A stretch of 64,000 nt of DNA from Candidatus Rokuibacteriota bacterium (GCA_040902305.1 JBBDXN010000134.1:11920-75919), one strand, 5' to 3'; positions 5,210-35,342 are shown, counted from the first letter of the stretch. Notes: a model not told the origin generated them from the sequence alone. A program made the numbers and translations.

Positions 5210-5749
5210 TCAGGGAACAACCTCCCGCCACTCCCCAGGTCGCAGCTCCCCGAGGGAGTACGGCCCCACCGCCGCCCGGATCAACCGTAGCGTGGGGTGC
5301 CCCACCGCCGCGGTCATTCGCCGCACCTGCCGGTTCCGCCCCTCGCGCAGCCCGATCTCGATCCACGCGGTCGGGATCGCCGCGCGGTAGCGGATCGGCG
5401 GCTCGCGCGGCCAGAGTCGCGGCGGCTCCGAGATGAGCGCCACCCGCGCCGGCCGCGTCCGCCCGTCCTTGAGCGCGATGCCCTGACGCAAGCGCTCGAG
5501 CGCCTCCGCGGCCGGCATGCCCTCCACCTGCGCCCAGTAGACTTTCTCGACCCCGTGGCGCGGCTCGGCCAGGCGCGACTGGAGCGCGCCGTCGTCGGTC
5601 AGCAGCACGAGCCCCTCGCTGTCGTGGTCGAGGCGCCCGGCCGGGTAGACGTCGCGTACCGGCACGTGGTCGGCCAGGGTCGGCCGTCCCGCCTGGTCGG
5701 TGAACTGGCAGAGCACGCCGAACGGCTTGTTGAGCAGGAGCAGCGTCAC
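5210..5749 (-). CDS. rluE: 23S rRNA pseudouridine synthase RluE (RsuA/RluE family)
   Basis: 179 aa. [32 protein letters not shown] (catalytic Asp) and [15 protein letters not shown] match RluE closely. Confidence 0.85.
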
Positions 5750-6825
5750 TCGGGCAGCAGCGGAGCCATCTGACGCGGGTCCAGCTCGAGCCAGACCTTC
5801 TCGTCCACCTCGAATACCTCGTGCGGACGGGCGGTGACCCGCAGGCTCAGCGCGCTCCCGGCGGGCCGCACCGTGTAGTCCCAGTGCTCGCCGAGATACG
5901 CGCGCTGCATCACCGCGCCGGGCACGACCGCGCCGCCCCGCTCGGCGGCGGCGGGCGGCTGGCGGTGCAGCACGATGGACTGCGGCCGCAGCGAGAAGCT
6001 CACCCGGCCCTGGGCCGCCGGCGGCTCCGCGAAGGCGCGCCGGGGGATCTCGAAGTGATCGAAGGCGATCGCCTCGCCCCGCGCCTCGCCGTCGAGGAAG
6101 TTGGTGCGGCCGATGAAGCCGGCCACGAATCGAGTACGTGGACGCGCATAGACCGCACGCGGGGCGTCCACCTGCTCGATGCGTCCCTGGTTCATGACCG
6201 CGATGCGGTCGGACGTCACCATCGCCTCCGCCTGGTCATGGGTGACGTAGACGGTCGTGATGTGGAACTCGTCGTGCAGGCGGCGGATCTCGTAGCGCAT
6301 CTCCTCACGCAGGTTCGCGTCGAGGTTGCTGAGCGGCTCGTCGAGCAGCAGGATGGTGGGCTGCACCACGATGGCGCGCGCGAGCGCCACCCGCTGCTGC
6401 TGCCCGCCCGACAGCTCCTGCGGATACCGCCCGCCCAGATGGCCCATCTGCACCACGCCCAGGATCTTGTCCACCCGCGCGCGGATCTCCACGCGCGGCA
6501 GGCGCCGGACTTCCAGGCCGAAGGCCACGTTCTCGGCCACCGTCATGTTCGGCCAGATCGCGTAGCTCTGGAAGATCATCGACATGTTGCGCTTCTCGGG
6601 CGGCAGGGTGGAGGACGGCGAGGAGATCGTGCGGCCGTCCATCGCGATGGTGCCCGCGCTCGGCTCGAGGAATCCCGCGATCATCCGGAGCGTCGTGGTC
6701 TTGCCGCAGCCGGAGGGGCCGAGCAGCGAGACGAACTCACCCTGGGCCAGGGAGAGGCTGAAGCGGTCCACCGCGGTCACGCTGCCGAAGCGGCGGCTCA
6801 CGTCGGTGAGGACGAGACGGCTCAC
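5746..6825 (-). CDS. ABC transporter ATP-binding protein (Fe3+/polyamine FbpC-PotA type)
   Basis: 359 aa. Walker [10 protein letters not shown], signature LSGGQQQR, Walker B LLLDEP, and a C-terminal TOBE-like region. Confidence 0.9.
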
Positions 6826-8504
6826 GAGGCGGTCCTCTTCAAGAGAAAATCGCGGCCGACGAGGCGGAAGCCCAGCAGCACCAGCGCCACCGTGCCCACG
6901 ACCAGGATGAGGCCCATCGAGGAGAGCACCTCGAAGTTGCCCTCGTCGCTCTTGTCGAAGAGCAGGACCGAGAGTACCTGGGTGCCGGTGGTGTAGAGGA
7001 AGATGGCGGAGGACAGCTCGCGGGTGGCCGGGATGAACACGAGGATGAAGGCGCCGGCCAGCCCGCGCTTGAGCAGCGGCGCCACCACGCGGCGCAGGGC
7101 CAGCAGCCGGCTCCCGCCCAGGATGCGGGCGGCGTCCTCAAGCTCCGGGTTGATGCTGCGCAGCGCCGCGTCGCTGTTCGTGTACGCGATCGGCAGGAAG
7201 CGGGTGGCGAAGGCCAGGATCAGGATCCACGCGGTGCCGTAGAGCACGAGCGGCTTCGTGGTGTACGCGGCGTAGAAGCCGATGGCGAGCACGATGCCCG
7301 GGATCACGAAGGGCGCCATCGCCACGTAGGTCAGCGCGCGGCCGAACGGCACCAGCCGCCGGGCCACGATGTAGGCGATGGCCAGAGCCAGGCCGAGCGC
7401 GATGATGGACGCGACCGCCGCGTAGACGAAGGTGTTGACGGTCGCCGCGCGGGTGGCGGTCTGGTCGAAGAGCACGAAGCGCAGGTTGTGCAAGGTGAGG
7501 TTGTCCCAGGAGAAGCCGCGGCCCCAGGCCTTCGCGAAGGCGGCCTGCAGCACCACCACCATCGGCACGAAGAAGGACAGCGAGGTCACGAAGAGGCAGT
7601 AGCCGAGCAGGGCCCAGCGCCAGCGGCCGAGCCGCACCATGCGCCGCTCACCGCCCTTGCCGGTGAGGGCCACGAAGCCCTTGCGCGCCATCAGGCGGTA
7701 CTGGAGCCAGAACAGGAACACGGTGATCAGCAGCAGCGGCATCGCGTAGGCGGCCGCCTCCTGCAGGCGCGGGGGGAACTCGAACATCTGCCACAGCATG
7801 GTGGTCATGACCTGGAAGCGGGCGGGGAGCGCGATGAGGGCGGGGGCGCCGAACAGGGCGATCGCCTCCAGGAACTCCACGATGAAGGCGCCCATGATCG
7901 CGGGCAGCGCGAGCGGCAGGGTCACCCGGAGGGTGGTGCGGAGCGTGGAGGCCCCGAGCGTGCTCGCCGCGTCCTCCATCTCGGAGGAGATCAGGTCGAG
8001 GGCGGAGCGGGTGAACACGAACATGTAGGGGAACGAATAGCAGGCGATGACCAGCACCAGCCCGGTCTTGCTGTAGATGTTGAAGGGGCCGGCGTCGGCG
8101 CCGGTCAGCCCGGTGTAGATGCGGTTGAGCCAGCCCGCGTTGGGGCCCGCCATGAGGATCCAGGCCACCGCGCCCAGGTAGTTGGGCATGATGAAGGTGC
8201 CGAGGACGGAGGCCCACACCAGCCCCTTGCCCGGCATGTCGGTGCGGGACACCGCCCACGCCATCGGCACCCCGAACACGATACAGAGCCCCGCTGCTGC
8301 GAGCCCGACGACCAGGGAATTGATCAGCGCTTCGATGTTGCGCCAGCGGCCGTAGGCGGCCGCGTAATTCTCGAGCGTGAAGGCGCCGGTCTGTGGATGC
8401 TCGAAGCTCGCCCACAGGAGACGGGCGAGCGGATTGACCACGAGCAGCAGCAGCAGCGCGATCAGCAGCAGCCAGACGACGAGCGACTTGTCTCTAGATA
8501 CCAA
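6822..8504 (-). CDS. ABC transporter permease, fused two-domain (FbpB-like)
   Basis: 560 aa, polytopic, with two EAA-type permease modules (EDAASTLGAS..., EDAARILGGS...). 4-nt overlap with the ATPase gene. Confidence 0.9.
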   Translation of the reverse strand: MVSRDKSLVVWLLLIALLLLLVVNPLARLLWASFEHPQTGAFTLENYAAAYGRWRNIEALINSLVVGLAAAGLCIVFGVPMAWAVSRTDMPGKGLVWASVLGTFIMPNYLGAVAWILMAGPNAGWLNRIYTGLTGADAGPFNIYSKTGLVLVIACYSFPYMFVFTRSALDLISSEMEDAASTLGASTLRTTLRVTLPLALPAIMGAFIVEFLEAIALFGAPALIALPARFQVMTTMLWQMFEFPPRLQEAAAYAMPLLLITVFLFWLQYRLMARKGFVALTGKGGERRMVRLGRWRWALLGYCLFVTSLSFFVPMVVVLQAAFAKAWGRGFSWDNLTLHNLRFVLFDQTATRAATVNTFVYAAVASIIALGLALAIAYIVARRLVPFGRALTYVAMAPFVIPGIVLAIGFYAAYTTKPLVLYGTAWILILAFATRFLPIAYTNSDAALRSINPELEDAARILGGSRLLALRRVVAPLLKRGLAGAFILVFIPATRELSSAIFLYTTGTQVLSVLLFDKSDEGNFEVLSSMGLILVVGTVALVLLGFRLVGRDFLLKRTAS

Positions 8505-9540
8505 AGGTCTCGCGGAACTGCTCCTTCACCTCCGGGATGCCCTTCTCGATCTCGGCGGCGGAGGGCCGGATCGTCTTGACCTCCGCGATGGACTTGCCGC
8601 CCGTCATCGGCTTCACGTGCTTGTTCACCGGGTCCTGGTGCTGCTTCACCATCACCTCGTTGCCCTCCCGGCTCAGCAGGTATTCCATGAAGAGCTTGGC
8701 CGCGTTGGGGGCGGGGGCGTTCTTGAGGATGCCGGAGGCCGAGACCATCAGCACCGCGCCGTCCTCCGGATAGACCACCGCGAGGGGATTGCCCTTGGCC
8801 TTGCTCTCCAGCGTGGTGGCCGACGGGCCCGCGGCCACGATGGACTCCTTGGCGTTCAGCATGGTCACGGTGTCGTTGATCGAGCGGCCGATGCGCGGCT
8901 TGTTCAGCTCGAGCTTCTTGAAGTAGTCCCAGCCGTGGAGCTTGCGCATCTGCACGACCCAGGTTCCCACGTAGCCGCTGAAGCCCGGATGGCCGATCGA
9001 GACCTTCCCCTTCCACTTGGGGTCGGTGAGGTCGGCCCACTTCTTTGGGGCCTCCGAGGCGGATACCACGCTCGTATTGTAGGTGATGAGGACGAGACCC
9101 GCCGCGGTGGCCACGAACTGGTCCTCCGGGTCGTTGAACGGCCGGAAGGCGTCCACCAGCTCGCCGAGAGTCTTCGGCTTGTAGGCCTGTAGCCAGCCGT
9201 CCTGCTTCATCCTGGTGTAGTGGCTCTGATCGGTGGAGCTGATCACCGAGGCCTGGGCGATGCCCGCCTTCTGGTCCTGGGCGAGCCGCTGGTAGGCGAC
9301 CTGGGCGGTGGTGCGGATGTAGTTGCACTTCACGCCCGGGTACTTCTTCTCGAAGCCCTGGCAGATGGCCGCCGCGGTCTCCGAGTTGTAGTGGGCGGTG
9401 TACCAGGTGAGCTCCTTCTCCTTCTTGGCCGCCTCGTGGAGCGGCTTCTCGCCGTCGAAGGCGACCGCGGGCGCGCTCCTCATGCCGACGACGGACAGGA
9501 CCGCGAGTACCGCGACGATGAACACTCGAATGGATGTCAT
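8494..9540 (-). CDS. ABC transporter periplasmic substrate-binding protein (Fe3+-type family 1)
   Basis: 348 aa with a signal peptide (MTSIRVFIVAVLAVLSVVGMRSAPA). First gene of the binding protein, permease, ATPase order. Confidence 0.85.
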   Translation of the reverse strand: MTSIRVFIVAVLAVLSVVGMRSAPAVAFDGEKPLHEAAKKEKELTWYTAHYNSETAAAICQGFEKKYPGVKCNYIRTTAQVAYQRLAQDQKAGIAQASVISSTDQSHYTRMKQDGWLQAYKPKTLGELVDAFRPFNDPEDQFVATAAGLVLITYNTSVVSASEAPKKWADLTDPKWKGKVSIGHPGFSGYVGTWVVQMRKLHGWDYFKKLELNKPRIGRSINDTVTMLNAKESIVAAGPSATTLESKAKGNPLAVVYPEDGAVLMVSASGILKNAPAPNAAKLFMEYLLSREGNEVMVKQHQDPVNKHVKPMTGGKSIAEVKTIRPSAAEIEKGIPEVKEQFRETFGI

Positions 9541-9554
9541 GGGCGGTTTCTCCT

Positions 9555-10394
9555 TTATCGTCCGGTGAAGCGGGGCGCGCGCTTCTCGACGAAGTGGGCC
9601 ACGCCTTCCTTGAAGTCTTCGGTGGTGAAGCTCCGGCGCATCTCGTCGTCGCCGACCGCCGTCGCCTCCGCCAGGCTCTGGAACTGCGCCTCCCAGAGCT
9701 GGCGCTTCATGACCCGGAGCGAGCGCGGCGACACCAGGTCCGCGAGCTCGCGCGCGTAGGCGCGCACGTCGTCCTGGAGGCTGGCCGCCGGCTTCACCTG
9801 CGCGACCAGGCCCATCGCGAGCGCCTCCGCCGCGGTGATCGTGCGCGCGGACAGCAGCAGGTCGAAGGCATGCTGCAGGCCCACCAGGCGCGGGAGCATC
9901 CAGCTCGCCCCGTGCTCGGCGATGAGCCCCCGCCGCGAGAACGCGGTGGTGAAGACCGCGGTGTCGGCGGCGATGCGCAGATCGCAGTAGAGCGAGACGA
10001 CCAGGCCGAGCCCGGCGGTGGCCCCGTTCAGCGCCGCGATGATCGGCTTGGGGACCATCGGGAAGTAGGCGTAGGGCCCGCGGAAGTCGGGGCGGACGTC
10101 TCCGCCGGCGCCGGCCGCGTCATCCGGCTCGCCGCGCTCCGAGGAGCCCGCCGGCTCCTGCCGGCCCGCGCCCGCGATGCCGGAGAGCATCTGCATGTCG
10201 GCGCCCGCGCAGAAGCCGCGCCCGGCCCCGGGCAGCACGATCACGCGCACCGCCTCGTCGCGCCCGGCCTCCTCCATCGCCTGCCGCACCTCGCGCCCCA
10301 TCACGCCGGTCCACGCATTCAGCTTCTCGGGCCGGTTCAGGGTGACCGTGGCGATCCGCTCTCGCACCTCGTACAGGATCTGCTCGTAGCCCAT
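9555..10394 (-). CDS. enoyl-CoA hydratase/isomerase (crotonase) family protein
   Basis: 279 aa. VTLNRPEKLNAW, the GAGRGFCAGAD oxyanion motif and AALNGATAGLG. Confidence 0.9.
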   Translation of the reverse strand: MGYEQILYEVRERIATVTLNRPEKLNAWTGVMGREVRQAMEEAGRDEAVRVIVLPGAGRGFCAGADMQMLSGIAGAGRQEPAGSSERGEPDDAAGAGGDVRPDFRGPYAYFPMVPKPIIAALNGATAGLGLVVSLYCDLRIAADTAVFTTAFSRRGLIAEHGASWMLPRLVGLQHAFDLLLSARTITAAEALAMGLVAQVKPAASLQDDVRAYARELADLVSPRSLRVMKRQLWEAQFQSLAEATAVGDDEMRRSFTTEDFKEGVAHFVEKRAPRFTGR

Positions 10395-24649: not shown

Positions 24650-25516
24650 ATGGCGAGTATGAAACCCAGGCCCATCACCACGCCCATGGACGAGGCGACG
24701 GCCAGCTTCGGGTCGGGCTTGCGCTGGTGGCGCGAGCGCCGCGGCTTCTCGCAGCTCGACCTGGCCGGCGCCGCCGAGACCACCCAGCGTCACCTCAGCT
24801 TTCTGGAGTCTGGGCGGGCCGGCCCGAGCCCGGAGATGATCCTGCGGCTGGCCACGGTGCTGGACATCCCACTTCGCCAGCAGAACGCTCTGCTTCTCGC
24901 GGCCGGCTTCGCGCCGGCGTGGCGCGAGAGTGATCTCTCCGCACCGGAGCTCGCGCAGGTGAACGGCGCCCTCGACTACATGCTGGCGCAGCAGGAGCCG
25001 TACCCGGCGTTCGTCGTGGACCGGCGATGGAATCTCTTGCGCGCCAATGCCGGCGCGGGGCGATTCGTCGAGTTTCTCACGGAGCCCGCCCCGGCGACGG
25101 CGGCTGCTTCCGCGGAGCCAGTGAACTTCGCGGTCGCGTTGGTGTCCCCCGATGGGCTCCGCCCCTTCATCGTCAACTGGGAGGAGGTCGCCCTGTACTT
25201 TCTCCGCGGCGTGCAGGCCGACGCCATCGCGGATGGTACGCGGCAGACGGCCGAGCTCCTCACGCGGCTGCTCGCTTTCCCCGGCCTCCCCGCGCTCTCC
25301 CAGAACCCGCCGCCGGGAGAGACCCGGGCGCCGGTCCTGATCATTCACTTCAAGAGCAAGGAGACATCGCTCCGCCTGTTCACCACGATCGCGACCCTGG
25401 GTACTCCGCATGACGTGACCTTGCAGGAGATCCGCGTCGAGTGCTTTTTCCCCATGGATGACGCCACCGCCCAGATCTTTCGGGACTGGGGCCGCGGCGC
25501 GGGAGGGCCCCGCTGA
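24650..25516 (+). CDS. XRE-family HTH regulator with MmyB-like ligand-binding domain
   Basis: 288 aa from the ATG at 24650. LR..RERRGFSQL.LA......HLSFLE.GR..PS HTH, then P.PAFVVDRRWNLLRAN, typical of MmyB-like regulators. The stop overlaps the next start. Confidence 0.75.
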   Translation: MASMKPRPITTPMDEATASFGSGLRWWRERRGFSQLDLAGAAETTQRHLSFLESGRAGPSPEMILRLATVLDIPLRQQNALLLAAGFAPAWRESDLSAPELAQVNGALDYMLAQQEPYPAFVVDRRWNLLRANAGAGRFVEFLTEPAPATAAASAEPVNFAVALVSPDGLRPFIVNWEEVALYFLRGVQADAIADGTRQTAELLTRLLAFPGLPALSQNPPPGETRAPVLIIHFKSKETSLRLFTTIATLGTPHDVTLQEIRVECFFPMDDATAQIFRDWGRGAGGPR

Positions 25517-27597
25517 TGGACGGAGAATCTCGGGTCCTCGGAGCGTGCCCGATGGACTGTCCGGACACGTGTAGCTGGGTCGTCACCGTCAAGGATGGGC
25601 GCGCGGTTCGGCTGCAGGGCGATCCCACGCACCCCTTCACGCGCGGCGTCCTGTGCAACAAGCTCGACGACTACGTCGCGTACACGCAGTCCCCCGAGCG
25701 GCTCCTGTACCCGATGCGGCGCGTCGGCCCGAAGGGAGCCGGCGACTTCGAGCGGATCTCCTGGGACGGGGCGCTCGACGAGATCGCCGAGCGGCTGAGC
25801 CGTGTCATCCGCGAGTTCGGCGCGGAAGCCATATGGCCGTACCTGGGCTCGGGCAGCATGGGGCTTCTCCAGGGCTGCTATGGGGCGGGGCGCCGGTTCT
25901 GGAACGTCGTCGGGGCCTCCCGGCACCTCATGACGATCTGCACGATCGCGGGCGGGGTGGGCACCGGCTACACGCTCGGCGACAACCGCGTCGGCATGGA
26001 CCCCGAGACTCTCCGCTTCTCGAAGCTCATCATCCTCTGGGGCAGCAACACGCTGACCACCAACCATCACCTGTGGCGCTCCATCACGACGGCGCGTCGG
26101 AACGGCGCCCACCTCGTGGTGATCGACCCGACCCGGACGCGCACCGCCGATGCCGCGGACAGCCACCTCGCGCTCGTCCCCGGGACCGACGCCGCGCTGG
26201 CGCTCGGACTCCTGCACGTCGTGCTGAGCGAGGGCGCGGAGGATCGCGACTTCATCGACCGCCACACCCTCGGCTGGGACGCGTTCCGCCGGCGCATCCT
26301 GGACTACCCGCCGGCGCGCGTCGCCCTAGTCTGCGGCCTCCCGGTCGACGCGATCGTGGAGCTGGGGAAGCGGATCGCCCGCACGCGCCCCACGGGCATC
26401 CGGGTGACGATGGGGCTCCAGCGACACGGCGGGGGCGGGATGGCGGTGCGGACCATCACCTGCATCCCGGGCGTCACCGGCGACTGGCGATATCCCGGCG
26501 GCGGCGTCGGCTACGACACGCGGGGCTTCTTCGGCGTGAACTGGGCGGGGCTCTATCGGGATGATCTGCGGAAGACCCCCGCGCGCGCACTGAGCATGAC
26601 CCGTCTCGGCGAGGGCCTCCTCGAGGTAACGGACCCGCCGGTCAAGGCCTTGTTCGTCTACGCGAGCAACCCGGCCGCCAGCGTGCCGCACCAGACGAAG
26701 ATCCGGCGGGGGCTCGCGCGGCCCGACCTCTTCACGGTGGCGGTCGAGCACTTCCGGACGGACACCGTCGAGTACGCGGATATCGTGCTCCCCGCCACGA
26801 TGCAGCTCGAACACGCGGACGTCCAGATCTCGTACGGGCACCTCTACATCTCGTGGAACGAGCCCGCGGTGGCGCCGCCCGCGGAGTGCCTGCCCACCAC
26901 CGAGATCTTCCGGCGTCTGGCGCGGCGCCTGGGTCTGGACGTGCCCTGCCTCTACGACAGTGACGAGGATCTGGCGCGCCAGCTCCTCGACTCGGATCAC
27001 CCGTCGCTCCGCGGCATCACGTTCGACGCCCTGAGGACGCGGGGGTGGATGCGGCTCGCCGTCCCGGAGCCGTTCGTACCGTTCGCCGACGGCTTCCCCG
27101 CGCCGTCCGGGAAGCTCGAGTTCTACACCGCTCGCATGACCGAGGCGGGGCTCGACCCGCTCGCGGGCTACACGCCGCCCTACGAGGCGGCCCAGCGCGG
27201 CACGCCGCTGGCCGCCCGGTACCCGCTGGCTCTGATCGCGGGTGCCGACCACTACTTCCTGAACTCGGTGTTCGCGAACGTCCCCACCCAGACGCGGCGC
27301 TCCGGCCCGACGACCATCCGCGTCCACCCCGAGGACGCGACCCCCCGGCGGCTCGAGACCGGCTGCGAGGCCCGCGTCTTCAACGACCGCGGCGCGTTCG
27401 TCGCGCGGGTGGAGGTGACCCCGCGGGTCCGGCCGGGCGTGGTCGCCAGCACCAAGGGGCGCTGGCCACGGCTGTCGAAGGACGGCGCGACCGTCAACGC
27501 CACCGTGGACGAGCGAGACGCCGACATGGGTGGCGGAGCGGTCTTCCACGACAACCGCGTGGAGATTGAACGACTCTTTGTAGGCGAGAGCAGCTAG
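25516..27597 (+). CDS. molybdopterin-dependent oxidoreductase (MopB superfamily, single-subunit type)
   Basis: 693 aa. N-terminal CPMDCPDTCS Cys cluster, MopB body and a C-terminal beta-barrel molybdopterin-binding domain (V.IHP.DA..RG...G..V.V.N.RG). Confidence 0.88.
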   Translation: MDGESRVLGACPMDCPDTCSWVVTVKDGRAVRLQGDPTHPFTRGVLCNKLDDYVAYTQSPERLLYPMRRVGPKGAGDFERISWDGALDEIAERLSRVIREFGAEAIWPYLGSGSMGLLQGCYGAGRRFWNVVGASRHLMTICTIAGGVGTGYTLGDNRVGMDPETLRFSKLIILWGSNTLTTNHHLWRSITTARRNGAHLVVIDPTRTRTADAADSHLALVPGTDAALALGLLHVVLSEGAEDRDFIDRHTLGWDAFRRRILDYPPARVALVCGLPVDAIVELGKRIARTRPTGIRVTMGLQRHGGGGMAVRTITCIPGVTGDWRYPGGGVGYDTRGFFGVNWAGLYRDDLRKTPARALSMTRLGEGLLEVTDPPVKALFVYASNPAASVPHQTKIRRGLARPDLFTVAVEHFRTDTVEYADIVLPATMQLEHADVQISYGHLYISWNEPAVAPPAECLPTTEIFRRLARRLGLDVPCLYDSDEDLARQLLDSDHPSLRGITFDALRTRGWMRLAVPEPFVPFADGFPAPSGKLEFYTARMTEAGLDPLAGYTPPYEAAQRGTPLAARYPLALIAGADHYFLNSVFANVPTQTRRSGPTTIRVHPEDATPRRLETGCEARVFNDRGAFVARVEVTPRVRPGVVASTKGRWPRLSKDGATVNATVDERDADMGGGAVFHDNRVEIERLFVGESS

Positions 27598-28691
27598 CTC
27601 CGGACCAACTCGGCGACCGACTTCAACGGACTGCCGTCTTTCCTTGTGATCGGCCGCCGCGCCGGCCCGGTCTGGTCCCCGAACGTGGGCTGCCAGCAGG
27701 AGTGCTTGCCCGCGCCGCCGGTCACGATCACGGTCAGGTCGTCGGCGGAGCGTACCGCGGGCACCATGGTGTCGGGCGCGTCCTTGGCGCCGCGCTGGAT
27801 CAGGTGCGCGCGGTACTCGTCACCGAGCCGCGCCAGCGGGAAGCGGGCGTGCTCGAAGAGGAACTCCTTGACCTGCCGCTTGGTGAAGCCGTCGCGCGCG
27901 ATCGTGGCGGCGTGCTCGGGGCCGAGCGAGAGCAGGGGATGGCCGCCGGCCAGGAGATTGTTGCTGCCCGCCTGGCCCATGGCGCCCGCGATCACCTTCA
28001 AGATGCCGAGGCCGGTGTAACTGAAGTGGTCCTGGATATTGTGCGGGCCCTCGCACGCGATTGCGGTGACCAGGCTCGTGGCGGCCGGGAAGCCGTGTTC
28101 AATGTGTAGTGGCTCCCACGGGTTCGCTTCCTCGTTCTCGGCCACGCAGTAGGCGATCTTGGCCGGGCTGCCCTGGGTGGCGCGGTCGCCGGTGCCGGGC
28201 AGGCCGCCGCCCACGTTCATCAGGACGAGCCGGATCGCGCGCCCGATCGTGAGGTTGGCGCGGAAGCCCTGGCCGAAGGCGTTGTAGCCCGAGTTGATGC
28301 CGACCTCTTTTGCGATCGGCCCGTTGACGATGATCAGCGGGGCCACCGGGTGCGTGGTGGCCTGGATGGAGTCGAGATTGAACGCGGGATCGGCCAGCGC
28401 CTCGACCGCGGTGAGGATGACCGGCAGGTATTCCGGCCGGCAGCCCGCCATGATCGCGTTGATCGCGATGCGCTCCACCGTGGCCTCGCCTTGGCGCGGC
28501 GGCAGCACCGCCATGACTTCGCGCGGCTCCCGATCGGTGATGCGCAGGAACTCGCGCACGTCCTCTTCGGTTGGGGGCACGATCGGCAGCCCGTCGGTCC
28601 AGCCCTGCCCCTGATAGTGCCGGTTGATCTCCGAGTAGCCGCCCTTGAGGCGGAAGATCTTGGCCGCCGGGCCCGAGGCGGACACGCTCAT
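27594..28691 (-). CDS. conserved hypothetical protein (last gene of the UGSC operon)
   Basis: 365 aa with coding-like composition. The ATG overlaps the UGSC gene stop (ATGA). I cannot assign a family to the motif WTDGLPIVPPT. Confidence 0.7.
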   Translation of the reverse strand: MSVSASGPAAKIFRLKGGYSEINRHYQGQGWTDGLPIVPPTEEDVREFLRITDREPREVMAVLPPRQGEATVERIAINAIMAGCRPEYLPVILTAVEALADPAFNLDSIQATTHPVAPLIIVNGPIAKEVGINSGYNAFGQGFRANLTIGRAIRLVLMNVGGGLPGTGDRATQGSPAKIAYCVAENEEANPWEPLHIEHGFPAATSLVTAIACEGPHNIQDHFSYTGLGILKVIAGAMGQAGSNNLLAGGHPLLSLGPEHAATIARDGFTKRQVKEFLFEHARFPLARLGDEYRAHLIQRGAKDAPDTMVPAVRSADDLTVIVTGGAGKHSCWQPTFGDQTGPARRPITRKDGSPLKSVAELVRS

Positions 28692-29218
28692 CCCCGCGTG
28701 ACCGCCTTCCGCACGATCTCGACCGCGAGCTCCGCCTTCTTCACAACCTCGTCCTCGCGGATGCCGCCCAGCGGGTGGGGGATCAAGGCCAGGGGCAGAT
28801 CGGCGAGCCCGCGGTTCTTCGACTCGAGCCTCGCCAACTGCTCGAACTCATACGTCCCCATGACCACGGTGGGGATCCCCCGCTGCTCCAGTACGATGGC
28901 GCCGTGGATACTCCACGACGTGCACGACCCTCAGTCGGCGCTGCCGACCAGGACGAAGTCGCACGTCGTGAGCGCGGCCAGGATGTCGGGCGACGGCGCG
29001 CCCGCGATGCCCTTCTCGCGCTTGACGACGTCGCGGACCCCGTACTTCTCCTTGAGGCGCGCGACCACCGCCAGCATCAGGGTGCCCGCGTTGGCCTTGC
29101 TGTTGTCGAGGATGCCCGCGCGCTTGCCCTCGAGGCTGGCCAGGCGGGGCGCCAGGCCCGAGGCGAGAATCCGAGGCTCGGCGGTGGGGTCGTACAGGAC
29201 CTGCTCGTCCTGGCTCAT
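28688..29218 (-). CDS. UGSC-family selenoprotein (in-frame UGA = Sec at 28931-28933)
   Basis: The track ORF (95 aa) stops at a TGA, but the frame continues 81 codons to TGA 28688-28690. That second stop forms an ATGA overlap with the next gene. Read-through gives ...VLVGSAD-U-GSCTSWSIHGAIVLEQRGIPTVV..., the defining U-G-S-C motif. A hairpin follows 10 nt after the UGA. Confidence 0.8.
28900..28920 (-). other. putative bacterial SECIS hairpin of the UGSC gene
   Basis: The mRNA reads CGU-CGUGGA-GUA-UCCACG-GCG. This is a 6-bp perfect stem extendable to 9 bp including a G-U pair, with G and U in the apical loop, starting 10 nt after the UGA. Confidence 0.55.
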
Positions 29219-29730
29219 CGGCTGATCTCCTTCCGCCCTCGTAGTTTCCGATCATCCAGCAAGGTCAGCATCCGGTCCACGCCCAGCTCGAGGCACCGCT
29301 TGATCTCGTCCCGCGTCGCGCGGTAGCGGTCCTCGCCCTGGCCGAACGGGTCGTCGACGTCGCCGGCCTCGCCGGCCAGCTCGTGCAAGGTCAGGATCGG
29401 CCGGCCCTGGGCCTCCTCGTAGGCGCCGATCGTCTCCTTCTGCTGCCCGGTCATGGTGACGATGAGGTGCGCCTCCGCCACGATCTCGCGGTGACGGCGG
29501 AGGTCGGTGGAGGCGAACGCGTCCTCGGCCAGGTGGATGTCGTCCTCGCGCAGCACGATGCGCGCGTCGAGCGAGGGAATCATGCCGTCGCGGGCGTGGT
29601 TGGCGATGCCGCCCGAGCGCACCCGGACGTTGCCATTCACCCCGCGCGAATCGAGCATCTTCTCCAGGAGGACGTGGGCCATCACGCTGCGGCAGGTATT
29701 GGCGTGACAGACCAGGAGGACGTTGGTCAA
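29215..29730 (-). CDS. low-molecular-weight protein-tyrosine phosphatase / ArsC-like (C-X5-R-S)
   Basis: 171 aa. VLLVCHANTCRS P-loop near the N-terminus and the DVDDPFG general-acid motif. Only a TTG at 29730 (TTGA overlap with the upstream stop) places the P-loop correctly. The stop overlaps the UGSC start (ATGA). Confidence 0.78.
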   Translation of the reverse strand: MTNVLLVCHANTCRSVMAHVLLEKMLDSRGVNGNVRVRSGGIANHARDGMIPSLDARIVLREDDIHLAEDAFASTDLRRHREIVAEAHLIVTMTGQQKETIGAYEEAQGRPILTLHELAGEAGDVDDPFGQGEDRYRATRDEIKRCLELGVDRMLTLLDDRKLRGRKEISR

Positions 29731-30722
29731 CGCGCCTCCCAGGGAGATTGCCAGTACCGCACGCCCTTCCCCAGATCCTTCCACTCTTCCTTGGGCCGCT
29801 CGCTGAGGTTCTTGCCGAAGTTCGTGCCGGGCGGCTCGTGGAGGTTTTTGCCGAGCGTGTCCGGGAAGAGCTTGCCCAGCTCCTCGGGCTCGAGCCGGCG
29901 ATCGGCCTCGATGCGGCGGATCGGCTCGGGCAGCGCCATCAGGGTGTAGCCGTAGCCGAACGAGTGGAAGACCTGCCCGTTGACGTGGGCGGCGCCTTCG
30001 CTGGCCAGGAACACGACGAGGGGCGCCACGTTGTCCGGATCGCGCTCGGTCCCGATGGCCTGCTCGCTCGGCCACTTGCCGGTCTGCTCGAAGACCTGCC
30101 GACCGCGCGGCGTGGAATCGATCATGCGGGTCGCCCCGCTCGGCATGATCGCGTTCGACGTCACGTTGTACTTCGCCATGCCGTTGGCGGTGGACCAGGA
30201 GAGCCCGATGATGCCGGCCTTGGCCGCCCCGTAGTTGGGCTGCCCGGGCGAGCCAAGCGCGGAGACCGACGACATCGAGATGATGCGCCCGTACTTCTGC
30301 TCGCGCATGTGAGTGGAGGCGGCCCGGGTGCAGAAGTAGGTGCCGTCCAGATGCACGGCGAGGACCGCGTCCCATTCTTCCTTGGCCATGTTGAAGATCA
30401 TCCGGTCGCGCAGGATCCCGGCCACGTTGACCAGGATGTCGATGCGGCCGTAGGTCTTCACCACCTGCTCGACCATCTCGGTGGCCGCCTTGTGGTCGGC
30501 CACCGAGCCGTAGTTGGCCGACGCGGTGCCGCCGGCCTTGACGATCTCGTCCACCACCTGAGCCGCCGGCCCGGTGGCTATGCCCTCGCCGTCCAGGCTC
30601 GCGCCCAGGTCGTTCACCACCACCTTGGCGCCGGCCTTGGCCAGCGCGATCGCGATGCCGCGGCCGATGCCGCGGCCCGCGCCCGTCACGAGCGCGGCCC
30701 TGCCCTCGAGCAGCTTCGCCAT
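29727..30722 (-). CDS. SDR-family oxidoreductase, extended type (hydroxyacyl-CoA dehydrogenase-like)
   Basis: 331 aa from the ATG at 30722 (MAKLLEGRAALVTGAGRGIG...). YGAAK catalytic motif and a C-terminal extension of about 80 aa. Confidence 0.88.
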   Translation of the reverse strand: MAKLLEGRAALVTGAGRGIGRGIAIALAKAGAKVVVNDLGASLDGEGIATGPAAQVVDEIVKAGGTASANYGSVADHKAATEMVEQVVKTYGRIDILVNVAGILRDRMIFNMAKEEWDAVLAVHLDGTYFCTRAASTHMREQKYGRIISMSSVSALGSPGQPNYGAAKAGIIGLSWSTANGMAKYNVTSNAIMPSGATRMIDSTPRGRQVFEQTGKWPSEQAIGTERDPDNVAPLVVFLASEGAAHVNGQVFHSFGYGYTLMALPEPIRRIEADRRLEPEELGKLFPDTLGKNLHEPPGTNFGKNLSERPKEEWKDLGKGVRYWQSPWEAR

Positions 30723-32526: not shown

Positions 32527-32982
32527 TCAACGATCCAGGCGGGCGACCGAGACCCCGGCCGGGCCGCCTCCACCGTCCCGGTACAGCGCGTCGATGAGCG
32601 GACAGTGGGAGGCCTTGCCCGACGCGCAGCGCGCGACCGTGTCTCGGAGGACGCGCTCCATCTCTCTCAAGCTGGCGATCTTGGCCCGCACGTCCTCGAG
32701 ATGCGTCGCGGCAAGGCCGCGAGCCTCGGCGCAGGGGCGCTTGCGGTGGTCGGCCAGGGCCAGCAGGGCTCGTACCTCGTGGATGGAGAAACCCAGCGCC
32801 CGGGCTCGCCGGACGAAGGCGAGCCGTTTCAGGTGGTCTGTCCCGTAGAGACGGTAACCGCCGCCACTTCGCGCGGGTGTCGGCAGGAGCCCGGCCCGCT
32901 CGTAGTACCGGATCGTCTCGACGTTGCAGCCGGTGCGCTTGGAAAGGACCCCGATGGCGAAGCGGACTGCAATAGCCGGCAT
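32527..32982 (-). CDS. merR: MerR-family regulator with Hg(II)-type Cys triad
   Basis: 151 aa from the ATG at 32982, preceded by GGAGGAG. HTH GCNVETIRYYERAGLLP. Cys84, Cys119 and Cys127 (spacings 35 and 8, against 35 and 9 in Tn501 MerR) and the C-terminal HCPLI motif. Confidence 0.85.
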   Translation of the reverse strand: MPAIAVRFAIGVLSKRTGCNVETIRYYERAGLLPTPARSGGGYRLYGTDHLKRLAFVRRARALGFSIHEVRALLALADHRKRPCAEARGLAATHLEDVRAKIASLREMERVLRDTVARCASGKASHCPLIDALYRDGGGGPAGVSVARLDR

Positions 32983-33051: not shown

Positions 33052-33714
33052 ATGGCGACCCTGCACATCCTGACCGCCGACGAGCTCACCGCTCTCGACC
33101 TGGAAGGCCGGTGGAGGACGCGACGGGTCGCTCGGGAGCTCAGGATGTCTCGGCGGATTCTGCGGATGTTCCTGGATCGCGGCGGCCCGATCCCGGTTCA
33201 AGACATCGTCTCGGCCTCCGAGGATTCCGCTGGGTCCGTTCATCAGACGTTGACCGCGCTGGACGACGACGATCTGATCCTCATTCGTGATGGCCAGATA
33301 GACGTCGCGTACCCGTTCTCCGCTTCCCCGACGCCGTTCGTCGTCCGTCTGGCCGAGGGCCGGGAGCGGTACGCCTGCTGCGCGATGGACGCACTCGGCA
33401 TCGCGCCGATGGTCGGCCAGCGCATCGAGATCCGATCCCGCTGTCATCACTGCGGCGAGCCCCTGCAGTTCCCGGTCGATCCGCAGGGCCCGGGGCCCAG
33501 GGCGGAAGGCATCATGCTCTGGATCGGCAAGCAACCGGAAGAGAGATGCCGAGTCGCCGATACGTATTGAACGACCATCAATTTCTTCCGGTCGGAAGAA
33601 CATCTGAGGGCATGGCGGGAGGCGAACCCGACGGTCGAAGGAGCCGGGACCACGGTGGCAGAGGGCTTCAAGCTCGGTGACCGCATCTTCGGGGGGCTTC
33701 TCACAGGAGAGTAA
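33052..33714 (+). CDS. merB: organomercurial lyase MerB homolog with in-frame UGA (Sec) at the Cys159-equivalent position
   Basis: The track ORF stops at TGA 33568-33570, but the frame stays open to TAA 33712-33714. AYPFSA and [11 protein letters not shown] (Cys96-x-x-Asp99 equivalent) lie upstream. Read-through gives [20 protein letters not shown], compared with MerB SFCCHVHFFAS. A SECIS-like hairpin lies 12 nt downstream. Confidence 0.75.
33583..33600 (+). other. putative bacterial SECIS hairpin of the merB-like gene
   Basis: UUCUUCC-GGUC-GGAAGAA is a 7-bp perfect stem with a GGUC tetraloop, the same apical loop sequence as the E. coli fdhF SECIS. It starts 12 nt after the UGA. Confidence 0.6.
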
Positions 33715-33716
33715 GG

Positions 33717-33956
33717 ATGGCGGATCGTCGAATCACGGTCTACTGGTCCTCGACCTGACAGTCCTGCCACGCGGCGAAGGAGTTCCTTTCGTCTCGGGGA
33801 GTGCCGTTCACGGCGAAGAACGTGGCGGAGGACGCGACCGCCCGTGAGGAGCTGATCGGCAAGACCGGCCGGATGGCGGTGCCGGTGATCACGGTGGACG
33901 ATGTGGTGATCGTCGGGTTCGACCGGGGTCGGCTGCAGCGGCTCCTCGGGCCATGA
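33717..33956 (+). CDS. glutaredoxin-like (NrdH/Grx fold) selenoprotein, U-x-x-C active site
   Basis: Not in the ORF track. ATG 33717 (GGAGAG 8 nt upstream), TGA at 33756-33758, stop TGA 33954-33956 overlapping the next start (ATGA). Translation: MADRRITVYWSST-U-QSCHAAKEFLSSRGVPFTAKNV...GRMAVPVITVDDVVIVGFDRGRLQRLL. This has the Grx layout with UQSC where CxxC is expected, and the cis-Pro VP motif. Confidence 0.75.
33774..33792 (+). other. putative bacterial SECIS hairpin of the Grx-like gene
   Basis: GCGAAGG-AGUU-CCUU(U)CGU: a stem with one bulged U and a GU-containing tetraloop, starting 15 nt after the UGA. Confidence 0.45.
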
Positions 33957-34243
33957 CCGTCGCCGCGGTTCGCTGCCCCGACTGTGGCGCGCCGATCACC
34001 CTGGCCGCAGGCCTCGAGTCAGGCGCCTTGCTCGACTGCCCGAACTGCGCGGGGCATGCGGTTCGGGTTCGGGAAGAGGACGGCCGCTGGTCCGCCACCC
34101 TGGCTTACCGAGTGAGCTGCCCGACCTGCGATGAAGTCATGGCCCTTGCCGAGGATGCCAAGCCGGGGGATACGGTCTCGTGCTGTGGCCGCCGCTACCG
34201 ACTCACGTTCGAGTACGGCGCGTTCGCCGCCGAGGAAGCGTAG
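33953..34243 (+). CDS. Cys-rich double zinc-ribbon protein (LysW-like ribbons)
   Basis: 96 aa. CPDCG...CPNC and CPTC...CCG pairs. ATGA overlap with the Grx-like gene. Confidence 0.6.
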   Translation: MTVAAVRCPDCGAPITLAAGLESGALLDCPNCAGHAVRVREEDGRWSATLAYRVSCPTCDEVMALAEDAKPGDTVSCCGRRYRLTFEYGAFAAEEA

Positions 34244-34325
34244 GAGCGAGCTCCAACCAGCCTCGTGGACGCCAACCCGGCCTCCTGATACCCTACCTGC
34301 CGGCCACCAGACGGGGGGAGGGCAC

Positions 34326-35342
34326 ATGGATCTGGGTGTTTTCGACCATCTCGACCGCCGGGACATGCCGGTGACCGACTTCTACGAGCACCGGCTGCGG
34401 CTGCTCGAGAAGTACGACGCGGCGGGCTTCTACTCCTATCACCTGGCCGAGCACCACGCGACCCCGCTCGGGCTGGCCCCGGTGCCCGGGATCTTTCTGG
34501 CCGCGGCCACCCAGCGCACCCGCCGCATCCGCCTCGGGCCCTGCGTGTACTGCCTGCCGCTCTACAACCCACTCCGGCTGATCGAGGAAGTCTGCATGCT
34601 CGATCACCTCTCGCGGGGCCGCTTCGACTTCGGGGTGGGCCGCGGCATCGTGCCCTACGAGATGGCCTTCTTCGACCTGCATCACCTGGAGACCGAGGAG
34701 ATCTACCGGGAGACGCTCGAGGTCGTCCTGCAGGGGTTGACCAGCGACGTGCTCGACCACCGCGGGCCGAAGTACACCTTCCGGAAGGTCCCGATGATCC
34801 TGAAGCCGCTCCAGACGCCGCACCCGCCGCTCTGGTACGGGCTCGGGCACGCGGCCGGCGCGGAGTGGGCCGCCACCAACCGGGCCAACGTGATCACCAA
34901 CCTGGGGGCCGAGATGTCGGCGCCGCTCTTCGTGCGCTACCGCGAGGTGTGGCAGCGCAAGCACGGGGATGCGGCGACGCCGAAGCTCGGCATGGGCCGT
35001 CACGTGGTGGTGGCCCCCACCGAGGACGCGGCCCTGGCGCTCGGCCGCGCCAACTACGCCGTCTGGTACGGGAACCTCACCAAGCTCTGGCGTGACTTCG
35101 GCGCGATCCCGTTCCGGTTCGCGCCCGACTTCGACGAGGCGCGGCGCCGCGGGGTCGCCATCGCGGGCACGCCGGCCCAGGTGCGCGCGGAGTTCGAGCG
35201 GCAGGTGGCGGCGAGTGGCTGCAGCTACATGACCTGCCGGCTGATGTTCGGCGAGATGACCGAGGCGGAGGCGGCGGCCAACGTGGACCTGTTCGTCGCC
35301 CAGGTCATGCCGCACGTCACCGCGCTGACGGTGCCGGCGTGA
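34326..35342 (+). CDS. LLM-class (luciferase-like) flavin/F420-dependent oxidoreductase
   Basis: 338 aa from the ATG at 34326, preceded by GGGGGAGGG. AEHH..P.G, LSRGRFDFGVGRG. Confidence 0.85.
   Translation: MDLGVFDHLDRRDMPVTDFYEHRLRLLEKYDAAGFYSYHLAEHHATPLGLAPVPGIFLAAATQRTRRIRLGPCVYCLPLYNPLRLIEEVCMLDHLSRGRFDFGVGRGIVPYEMAFFDLHHLETEEIYRETLEVVLQGLTSDVLDHRGPKYTFRKVPMILKPLQTPHPPLWYGLGHAAGAEWAATNRANVITNLGAEMSAPLFVRYREVWQRKHGDAATPKLGMGRHVVVAPTEDAALALGRANYAVWYGNLTKLWRDFGAIPFRFAPDFDEARRRGVAIAGTPAQVRAEFERQVAASGCSYMTCRLMFGEMTEAEAAANVDLFVAQVMPHVTALTVPA

Follow-up and report, generated by a model that had tools for sequence, protein, structure and literature searches.

The 64,000-nucleotide (nt) stretch of a Candidatus Rokuibacteriota genome analysed here (GCA_040902305.1, JBBDXN010000134.1:11920-75919; hereafter the window) carries a co-directional block of five genes on its minus strand. 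They encode an amidohydrolase, a short-chain dehydrogenase/reductase (SDR), a protein of the low-molecular-weight protein tyrosine phosphatase fold (LMW-PTP), a selenoprotein of the UGSC family and a 365-amino acid (aa) protein, referred to as X in the following (Table 1). The last two genes form a pair that recurs across bacteria and archaea, and their products probably constitute a thioredoxin-driven reductase that depends on selenocysteine (Sec); the two genes preceding them form a pair of their own.

Table 1. Features of the five-gene block in the window (positions counted from the first letter of the window)
Feature	Position	Strand	Remarks
Amidohydro_3 amidohydrolase, 571 aa	30736-32451	minus	family scan; first gene of the co-directional block; also upstream of SDR in loci L083 and L101
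SDR, 331 aa	ATG 30722 to TGA 29727	minus	adh_short; classical, PRK07791-like, C-terminal extension
LMW-PTP, YwlE-like, 171 aa	TTG 29730 to TGA 29215	minus	LMWPc; P-loop CHANTCRS, DPFG
UGSC selenoprotein, 176 aa	ATG 29218 to TGA 28688	minus	PF24696, 7.8e-44; Sec96-Gly-Ser-Cys99
In-frame UGA, Sec codon	28931-28933	minus	D-U-G-S-C codon string shared by 59 of 81 loci; six others have the Cys version
Bacterial Sec insertion sequence (SECIS) hairpin	28900-28920	minus	11 nt after UGA; 7-8 pairs; 5-nt loop with invariant G-U
X (365-aa partner)	ATG 28691 to TAG 27594	minus	unannotated family; motifs GWTDGLPxVPPT, NAVMAGC84, R151, C182, E185

The amidohydrolase gene ends 13 nt before the start of the SDR gene, and the following three junctions are 4-nt overlaps (TTGA at 29727-29730, ATGA at 29215-29218 and ATGA at 28688-28691), exactly where the initial annotation of this DNA had placed them. 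Such overlaps suggest translational coupling; they do not show the stoichiometric co-expression that had been read into them, and the junctions vary even among close relatives. Shine-Dalgarno motifs precede the ATG of SDR (GGAGG, 6 nt), the TTG of LMW-PTP (GGGAGG at 29740-29735, 4 nt) and the ATG of UGSC (AGGAG, 8 nt). Inspection of the sequence upstream of the X ATG revealed no good Shine-Dalgarno site, which suggests that translation of X depends on coupling. The TTG start postulated for LMW-PTP is supported by its Shine-Dalgarno motif, by 171-aa homologues that align over 100% of the query and by the same overlap of the SDR and LMWPc genes in three other loci (L083, L100 and L104). A scan for sigma-70 promoters and terminators found nothing, although such a scan is uninformative for this phylum.

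The UGSC protein matches Pfam family PF24696 with 150.3 bits (cut-off 25) and NCBIfam family NF041046 with 120.5 bits, marginally below the cut-off of 125 when scored with U replaced by C. It is typical of the family in its D-U-G-S-C-T-S-W motif and in the SECIS hairpin right after the UGA. Full-length homologues (P0123, P0186, P0196 and proteins of haloarchaea and Arthrobacter) possess Cys at the Sec column and align across the UGA. Comparison of 27 Sec-type genes, drawn from many phyla, shows hardly any change in the 30 nt that follow the UGA, even at synonymous sites. When the hairpin is aligned over 27 sequences, 90% of the cells are paired, four pairs display compensatory changes, and G23 and U24 are invariant; the covariation score was reached by none of 500 shuffles. 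The hairpin was not found in six Cys-type genes. Judged from these sequence comparisons, the in-frame TGA is a genuine Sec codon, and the earlier designation of UGSC as a selenoprotein gene holds. Were the UGA a real stop, UGSC would be two small open reading frames (ORFs) or a pseudogene, and gene callers everywhere indeed split it into products of 94-96 and 57-68 aa. This explanation is nevertheless close to negligible in view of the Cys homologues, of the compensatory changes and frozen synonymous sites, which occur in UGA forms only, and of the established recognition of UGSC as a selenoprotein family (PF24696, NF041046; PMC2398784). No tRNA was detected by ARAGORN within the window.

Annotation is systematically affected: pipelines cut UGSC at the Sec codon to a fragment of ~96 aa and leave the remainder, and sometimes X, unannotated, as in an Acidovorax sp. 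T1 plasmid (L098, 7464-7754) and in most metagenome calls. The Sec gene thus ends up split in two, and X, where it is called, remains 'hypothetical', its label in every source. A contig binned as thaumarchaeal ('Candidatus Nitrosocosmicus' metagenome-assembled genome; L024, 6759-6823) holds a Sec-type UGSC gene with an in-frame bacterial SECIS element identical to the bacterial consensus; it is probably mis-binned and of bacterial origin.

UGSC was recognized as a selenoprotein family without assigned function and with a 'likely Trx-like fold' by Zhang and Gladyshev (PMC1976440, PMC2398784). For ~20 years it has figured in lists of the most abundant selenoprotein families of prokaryotes in metagenomes from oceans and freshwater, being abundant in oxic surface waters (PMC2398784), and a review of 2026 still describes it as uncharacterised. 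Sec forms outnumbered Cys forms by 255 to 21 in the earlier survey (PMC2398784) and do so by ~10:1 in our codon-motif counts over loci; such an excess of Sec over Cys is typical of catalytic Sec.

UGSC almost never occurs alone: it is paired with, or fused to, a member of the very large X family, which comprises 5,607 clusters at 50% identity (E up to 1e-3) and at least 598 genomic loci across bacteria and archaea. Neighbourhood statistics were obtained from counts of degenerate DNA motifs over loci, complemented by about 20 annotated loci. A D-U-G-S-C codon string adjoins X, on its strand, in 59 of 81 loci; six further loci have the Cys version and one has a variant motif (at least 66 of 81), compared to ~0.5 expected by chance. 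UGSC may be located either upstream or downstream of X. The pair is found in Methylomirabilota, Chloroflexota, all classes of Proteobacteria, Acidobacteriota, Actinomycetota, Bacillota, haloarchaea and methanogens. The two proteins are fused in the order UGSC::X (P0253, P0264, P0359 and a single Sec-containing gene of Robertmurraya, L019 6398-8011) as well as X::UGSC (P0245, P0250), and tandem X-X fusions also exist among database proteins. We regard UGSC/X as an ancient functional unit. Conservation of the neighbourhood in other genomes, on which the initial annotation had let its proposal depend, was found for this pair, which is kept across phyla, and not for the set of four genes. A 2008 survey (PMC2398784) mentions that UGSC can be fused to a conserved domain named 'Unknown_1', which is very probably X. 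In the UGSC literature searched, we found neither the constant partner X nor the links to thioredoxin (Trx), thioredoxin reductase (TrxR) and selenoprotein B described below.

For X, sequence and profile searches of the PDB, Pfam and NCBIfam gave no match, and comparison of 66 members of the family with Pfam and NCBIfam models, at E-values up to 1, yielded no model and no recurrent family. The AlphaFold model of X is confident (predicted local distance difference test score, pLDDT, 96.2; predicted template modelling score, pTM, 0.94). A Foldseek search with it against the PDB returned no real neighbour: the best template modelling score (TM) was 0.25, the matches to class I fumarase and to hydrolases of the Toblerone fold had E-values of 1e-3 to 0.3, and a search against BFVD gave no meaningful match. 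On the basis of this model, X appears to adopt a new α/β fold. Conserved residues of the family are D33, N78, C84, R151, C182 and E185.

The natural fusion protein P0264 is predicted to fold as one confident body (pLDDT 94.5, pTM 0.94). In this model, the UGSC domain consists of five β-α units in a flavodoxin-like arrangement, and the U/C-x-x-C motif is positioned at the N-terminus of the third helix. No thioredoxin fold was found in this domain, and its structural neighbours are generic flavodoxin-like proteins only. The predicted fold hence differs from the Trx-like one favoured in the literature. A candidate pyruvoyl-forming cleavage site at Gly83-Cys84 of X, as in GrdE and PrdA, was considered and rejected: Cys84 is located at a helix N-cap between two helices in the model, and it is replaceable (P0288).

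Functional leads come from the genes that adjoin the pair. TrxR genes (trxB), in one case together with a thioredoxin gene (trxA), are found in several arrangements: trxB-trxA-X-UGSC in Arthrobacter, X-UGSC-trxB in Roseovarius, trxB...SDR-X-UGSC-like in Variovorax, UGSC-X followed by a 303-aa TrxR-like protein in Haloterrigena and Pyr_redox_2-UGSC-X in locus L068, where Pyr_redox_2 is directly upstream of UGSC. The TrxR active-site motif was found in 12 of 99 loci and lay on the X strand in each of them; no such Trx or TrxR gene is encoded in the window itself. X is fused to TrxR in one protein (P0289), which exhibits the motifs CAVCDA and GGGDSA. Because TrxR and Trx genes repeatedly adjoin UGSC and a TrxR fusion exists, UGSC appears to be part of a thiol/selenol-coupled redox system. 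This linkage is the first testable lead to the function of UGSC/X.

Further neighbours of the pair are carboxylate transporters of the tripartite ATP-independent periplasmic (TRAP), tripartite tricarboxylate (TTT) and major facilitator superfamily (MFS) types, LysR, GntR and sigma-54 regulators and a range of enzymes: CaiB/BaiF coenzyme A (CoA)-transferases, enoyl-CoA hydratases, acyl-CoA dehydrogenases, PrpD, AcnX, Ldh_2 and amidohydrolase-type proteins. Owing to these neighbouring genes, a small carboxylate or amino acid is proposed as substrate; they point to a catabolic pathway acting on a small carboxylic or amino acid or on a CoA ester. After UGSC/X, a genome of the Bacillaceae (L019, 9944-10843) and a haloarchaeal plasmid (L089, 9014-9865) each encode a DUF6282 protein and a ProC-like NAD(P)-binding protein; DUF6282 displays the HxH...H...H...D pattern of amidohydrolase-superfamily enzymes.

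Known systems provide points of comparison. Selenoprotein B, the Sec-bearing component of glycine/sarcosine/betaine reductases (GrdB, GrdF) and of D-proline reductase (PrdB), shares the U-x-x-C motif with UGSC. In searches with the selenoprotein B models (TIGR01917, TIGR04483 and TIGR01918), UGSC members produced weak, recurrent matches, to GrdB in 11 of 17 members, to PrdB in 8 of 17 and to GrdF/TIGR01918 in others; among the 66 X members, which served as a control, no family recurred. The similarity to GrdB involves its Sec-bearing C-terminal part (residues 336-417 of 431). The systems also resemble each other in that the Sec subunit is small and is combined with a larger partner that binds the substrate, substrate binding being the predicted role of X. 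The grd operons carry dedicated trxB-trxA genes upstream, and so does the Arthrobacter UGSC/X locus. Differences are equally clear: UGSC scores far below the family cut-offs and is not a member of GrdB/PrdB, X does not resemble the pyruvoyl proproteins GrdE and PrdA, and counterparts of GrdA or GrdC/D are lacking. In contrast to Stickland fermenters, the hosts of UGSC/X are mostly aerobes and haloarchaea, and the contexts are carboxylate catabolic clusters. AhpC/AhpF and other TrxR-linked thiol reductases, in turn, likewise place a U/C-x-x-C protein beside, or in fusion with, a TrxR-type flavoprotein of low molecular mass, whereas UGSC/X differs from AhpC/AhpF in having neither a peroxiredoxin nor a thioredoxin fold, an extra 365-aa subunit and a catabolic context.

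With a probability of roughly 0.6, we consider UGSC/X to be a reductase of two subunits that depends on Sec, is driven by thioredoxin and acts on a small carboxylate or amino acid. The gene pair, its fusions, the decoding of Sec, the linkage to TrxR and the confident folds are shown by the data above; that the proteins form a complex in this organism, which way the electrons flow and that the chemistry is reductive are what we infer here. The pair could operate in the following manner: X would bind the substrate through its conserved residues Asp33, Asn78, Cys84, Arg151, Cys182 and Glu185, while UGSC would supply the catalytic selenol, with Sec96 at a helix N-terminus and Cys99 one turn later. 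Sec96 may attack either the X-bound substrate or an oxidised Cys residue in X itself, assuming proximity of Sec96 to Cys84/Cys182. Cys99 could then resolve the adduct, giving rise to a selenenylsulfide, which would be re-reduced by thioredoxin and NADPH-thioredoxin reductase. These electron donors would be dedicated ones in the ~1/10 of loci that encode them next to the pair, and the housekeeping system may serve elsewhere. In this scheme, UGSC would be analogous to the selenoprotein B components of the glycine and D-proline reductases.

Several observations weigh against such a reductase. The published literature contains no functional study of UGSC and no biochemistry for UGSC or the X family. 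A dedicated TrxR is missing in ~90% of the loci, the matches of UGSC to GrdB/PrdB are individually insignificant (best E-value 0.0075, 15 bits versus a cut-off of 602), and the neighbouring genes are heterogeneous, with many hydratases rather than redox enzymes. One UGSC::X fusion (P0247) has no U/C-x-x-C motif, and P0288 has Ile in place of Cys84 of X; these two lack redox residues, and redox chemistry is therefore not universal in the family. Subfamilies of UGSC/X may differ in chemistry. Moreover, the UGSC protein of the Arthrobacter sp. ERGS1:01 plasmid (Cys form; L091, 8982-9797) ends in a NifU-like domain that contains a CxxC motif (PF01106, E-value 4e-6), which fits a role in metal or Fe-S binding equally well.

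That domain is part of the case for an unlikely, though not far-fetched, explanation, according to which UGSC/X would be an enzyme with a metal or Fe-S centre, such as a carboxylate hydro-lyase or isomerase: Sec96, Cys99, Cys84 and Cys182 would serve as ligands and not as a redox relay, and thioredoxin would only keep them reduced or aid in assembly. Four conserved Sec/Cys residues distributed over two subunits would suit this role, as would the dehydratases and hydratases among the neighbours (AcnX, PrpD, enoyl-CoA hydratase and enolase), and many Sec sites are predicted to bind metal according to a 2026 review (PMC13188914). The only Foldseek matches of X near an E-value of 1e-3 are class I (Fe-S) fumarate hydratases; with TM-scores of 0.20-0.25 and root-mean-square deviations of 16-18 Å, however, they do not represent a real fold match. 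A U-x-x-C spacing where a helix begins is classic for redox centres, electron transfer is favoured by the X::TrxR fusion as well as by the trxB-trxA operon, and one of the four presumed ligands, Cys84, is replaceable, as P0288 shows. Somewhat less probable still is a general antioxidant or repair system, similar to a peroxidase or sulfoxide reductase, which would be recycled by TrxR as AhpC is by AhpF and would have no catabolic function. The adjacency and fusion to TrxR resemble AhpC/AhpF and Msr/Trx arrangements, universal stress protein genes adjoin the pair in two haloarchaea, and the abundance of UGSC in oxic surface waters (see above) would be in line with such a role. On the other hand, pairs reside within substrate-inducible catabolic clusters with transporters and regulators of the LysR, GntR or sigma-54 PrpR type, haloarchaea possess several UGSC/X paralogues per replicon, as would be expected for substrate-specific enzymes, and the conserved Arg, Glu, Asp and Asn residues in the putative pocket of X suggest a small polar substrate.

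The initial annotation had offered yet another explanation, in which SDR, LMW-PTP, UGSC and X form one stoichiometric reductase module: an ArsC-like LMW-PTP would act on an oxyanion or phospho-substrate and would be recycled by UGSC. The overlap at each junction in the window speaks for it, and so does the order amidohydrolase-SDR-LMWPc-UGSC-X, which recurs in close Methylomirabilota relatives (L082, L083 and L101-103). In one database protein, LMWPc and UGSC are even read as a single ORF (P0127; L082 7001-7783, 260 aa, from a 99% identical relative). As a true fusion of LMWPc with the N-terminal half of UGSC this candidate was rejected: the neighbouring genes are fragmented, and an indel error of the long-read assembly is the probable cause.

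The distribution of the genes largely refutes the four-gene module, and we regard it as very unlikely. The complete set recurs only in close relatives; since these relatives are at least 85% identical, the recurrence reflects shared ancestry. Even among them the set is interrupted, by an IS110-family transposase gene (5348-6283) that has inserted between LMWPc and UGSC in L083, a relative of 88% identity, both halves being intact, and by 660 nt between SDR and LMWPc in L101-103. Two loci with X proteins 74-78% identical to that of the window (L001 and L084) retain UGSC-X, without the SDR/LMWPc set. Conversely, overlapping SDR-LMWPc pairs occur without UGSC/X in L100 (5012-6486) and L104 (5030-6501), where the LMWPc protein is 76-77% identical to that of the window and a ~330-aa SDR is encoded upstream. 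A search for the LMWPc P-loop motif in 80 diverse genome loci carrying X gave three matches, all of them false (one falls within a luciferase-like gene, the other two in frames that are not coding). The conserved partner of LMW-PTP is the upstream SDR, not UGSC. The neighbourhood of four genes, supposed to be conserved, is thus confined to close relatives, and the block brings together, in a manner specific to this lineage, an amidohydrolase gene and two unrelated gene pairs, that of SDR with the YwlE-like phosphatase and that of UGSC with X. As an 'operon', the four-gene arrangement is in itself ordinary.

The identities of the two upstream proteins point in the same direction. LMW-PTP does match ArsC models weakly, reaching 30 bits with TIGR02691 (ArsC; cut-off 174), and it resembles the thioredoxin-coupled ArsC proteins of the pI258/LMW-PTP type in its fold, in its C-X5-R-S P-loop and in adjoining a redox protein. 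It differs from them in its score below the cut-off, in its nearest relatives, in having SDR rather than UGSC as its conserved neighbour and in its cysteines: the relay cysteines of ArsC (Cys82 and Cys89, Staphylococcus aureus numbering) were not found in LMW-PTP, its sole further Cys being residue 146, with none in the region of residues 80-90. The nearest solved structures are YwlE arginine phosphatases (4kk3, 1zgg and 4pic; PDB, E-value 5.5e-15). The P-loop CHANTCRS (C-x-x-N-T-C-R-S) has the Thr of the YwlE type and is accompanied by the acid loop DVDDPFG, and relatives are named 'low molecular weight protein arginine phosphatase' by NCBI. By its sequence features, LMW-PTP can be classified as YwlE-type, that is, arginine phosphatase-like. 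SDR, which had been described as 'extended', carries the motif TGAGRGIG (classical TGxxxGxG) together with YxxxK and matches adh_short and adh_short_C2 and not Epimerase; it belongs to the classical type. It is unusual to find a putative arginine phosphatase paired with a dehydrogenase. Of the thiol/selenol-coupled redox module envisaged earlier, the part concerning UGSC stands, given its recurrent TrxR/Trx neighbours and the TrxR fusion, whereas LMW-PTP drops out as a Cys-P-loop or ArsC-type partner, being YwlE-like, paired with SDR and not found in the 80 loci.

If UGSC/X is a reductase as proposed, it might even represent a third, hitherto unrecognised branch of substrate reductases that depend on Sec and are driven by thioredoxin, the other two being glycine and D-proline reductase, with a catalytic subunit (X) of a new fold. 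This branch would be widespread in aerobic bacteria and, in the Cys form, in archaea, and would carry out a reduction in the degradation of a carboxylate or amino acid that is common in the environment. We put this broader proposal forward tentatively, holding it to be possible rather than probable; if true, it would explain the abundance of UGSC among the selenoproteins of aquatic metagenomes. In any case, an orphan selenoprotein becomes a directly testable enzyme system with a partner (X), a TrxR neighbour and natural Cys versions of UGSC in culturable organisms, which include Arthrobacter, Paracoccus, Roseovarius, Variovorax, Robertmurraya and haloarchaea.

In the close relatives L101-103, the genes directly after X (8178-10208) encode SBP56, a selenium-binding protein of the methanethiol-oxidase family, and a SCO1/SenC protein. 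In the window, a gene on the plus strand (25516-27597) converges on X and overlaps its stop codon by 4 nt. It encodes a molybdopterin oxidoreductase of the cytoplasmic type with Fe4S4, Molybdopterin and Molydop_binding domains, which weakly resembles the dimethyl sulfoxide (DMSO)/selenate reductase family. At the other end, a regulator of the heavy-metal MerR type (32527-32982, minus strand) is located 76 nt upstream of the amidohydrolase gene and is divergent from a homologue of the alkylmercury lyase MerB (33052-33570, plus strand). The MerR gene shares its strand with the five-gene block, which its product may or may not regulate, and it is missing at this position in L083. Sequence related to the window was matched among metatranscriptome runs, which indicates presence only. 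Further along the plus strand, a small ORF (33953-34243) encodes a LysW-like zinc ribbon (PF21344, E-value 1.4e-9) and adjoins a luciferase-like monooxygenase gene (34131-35342).

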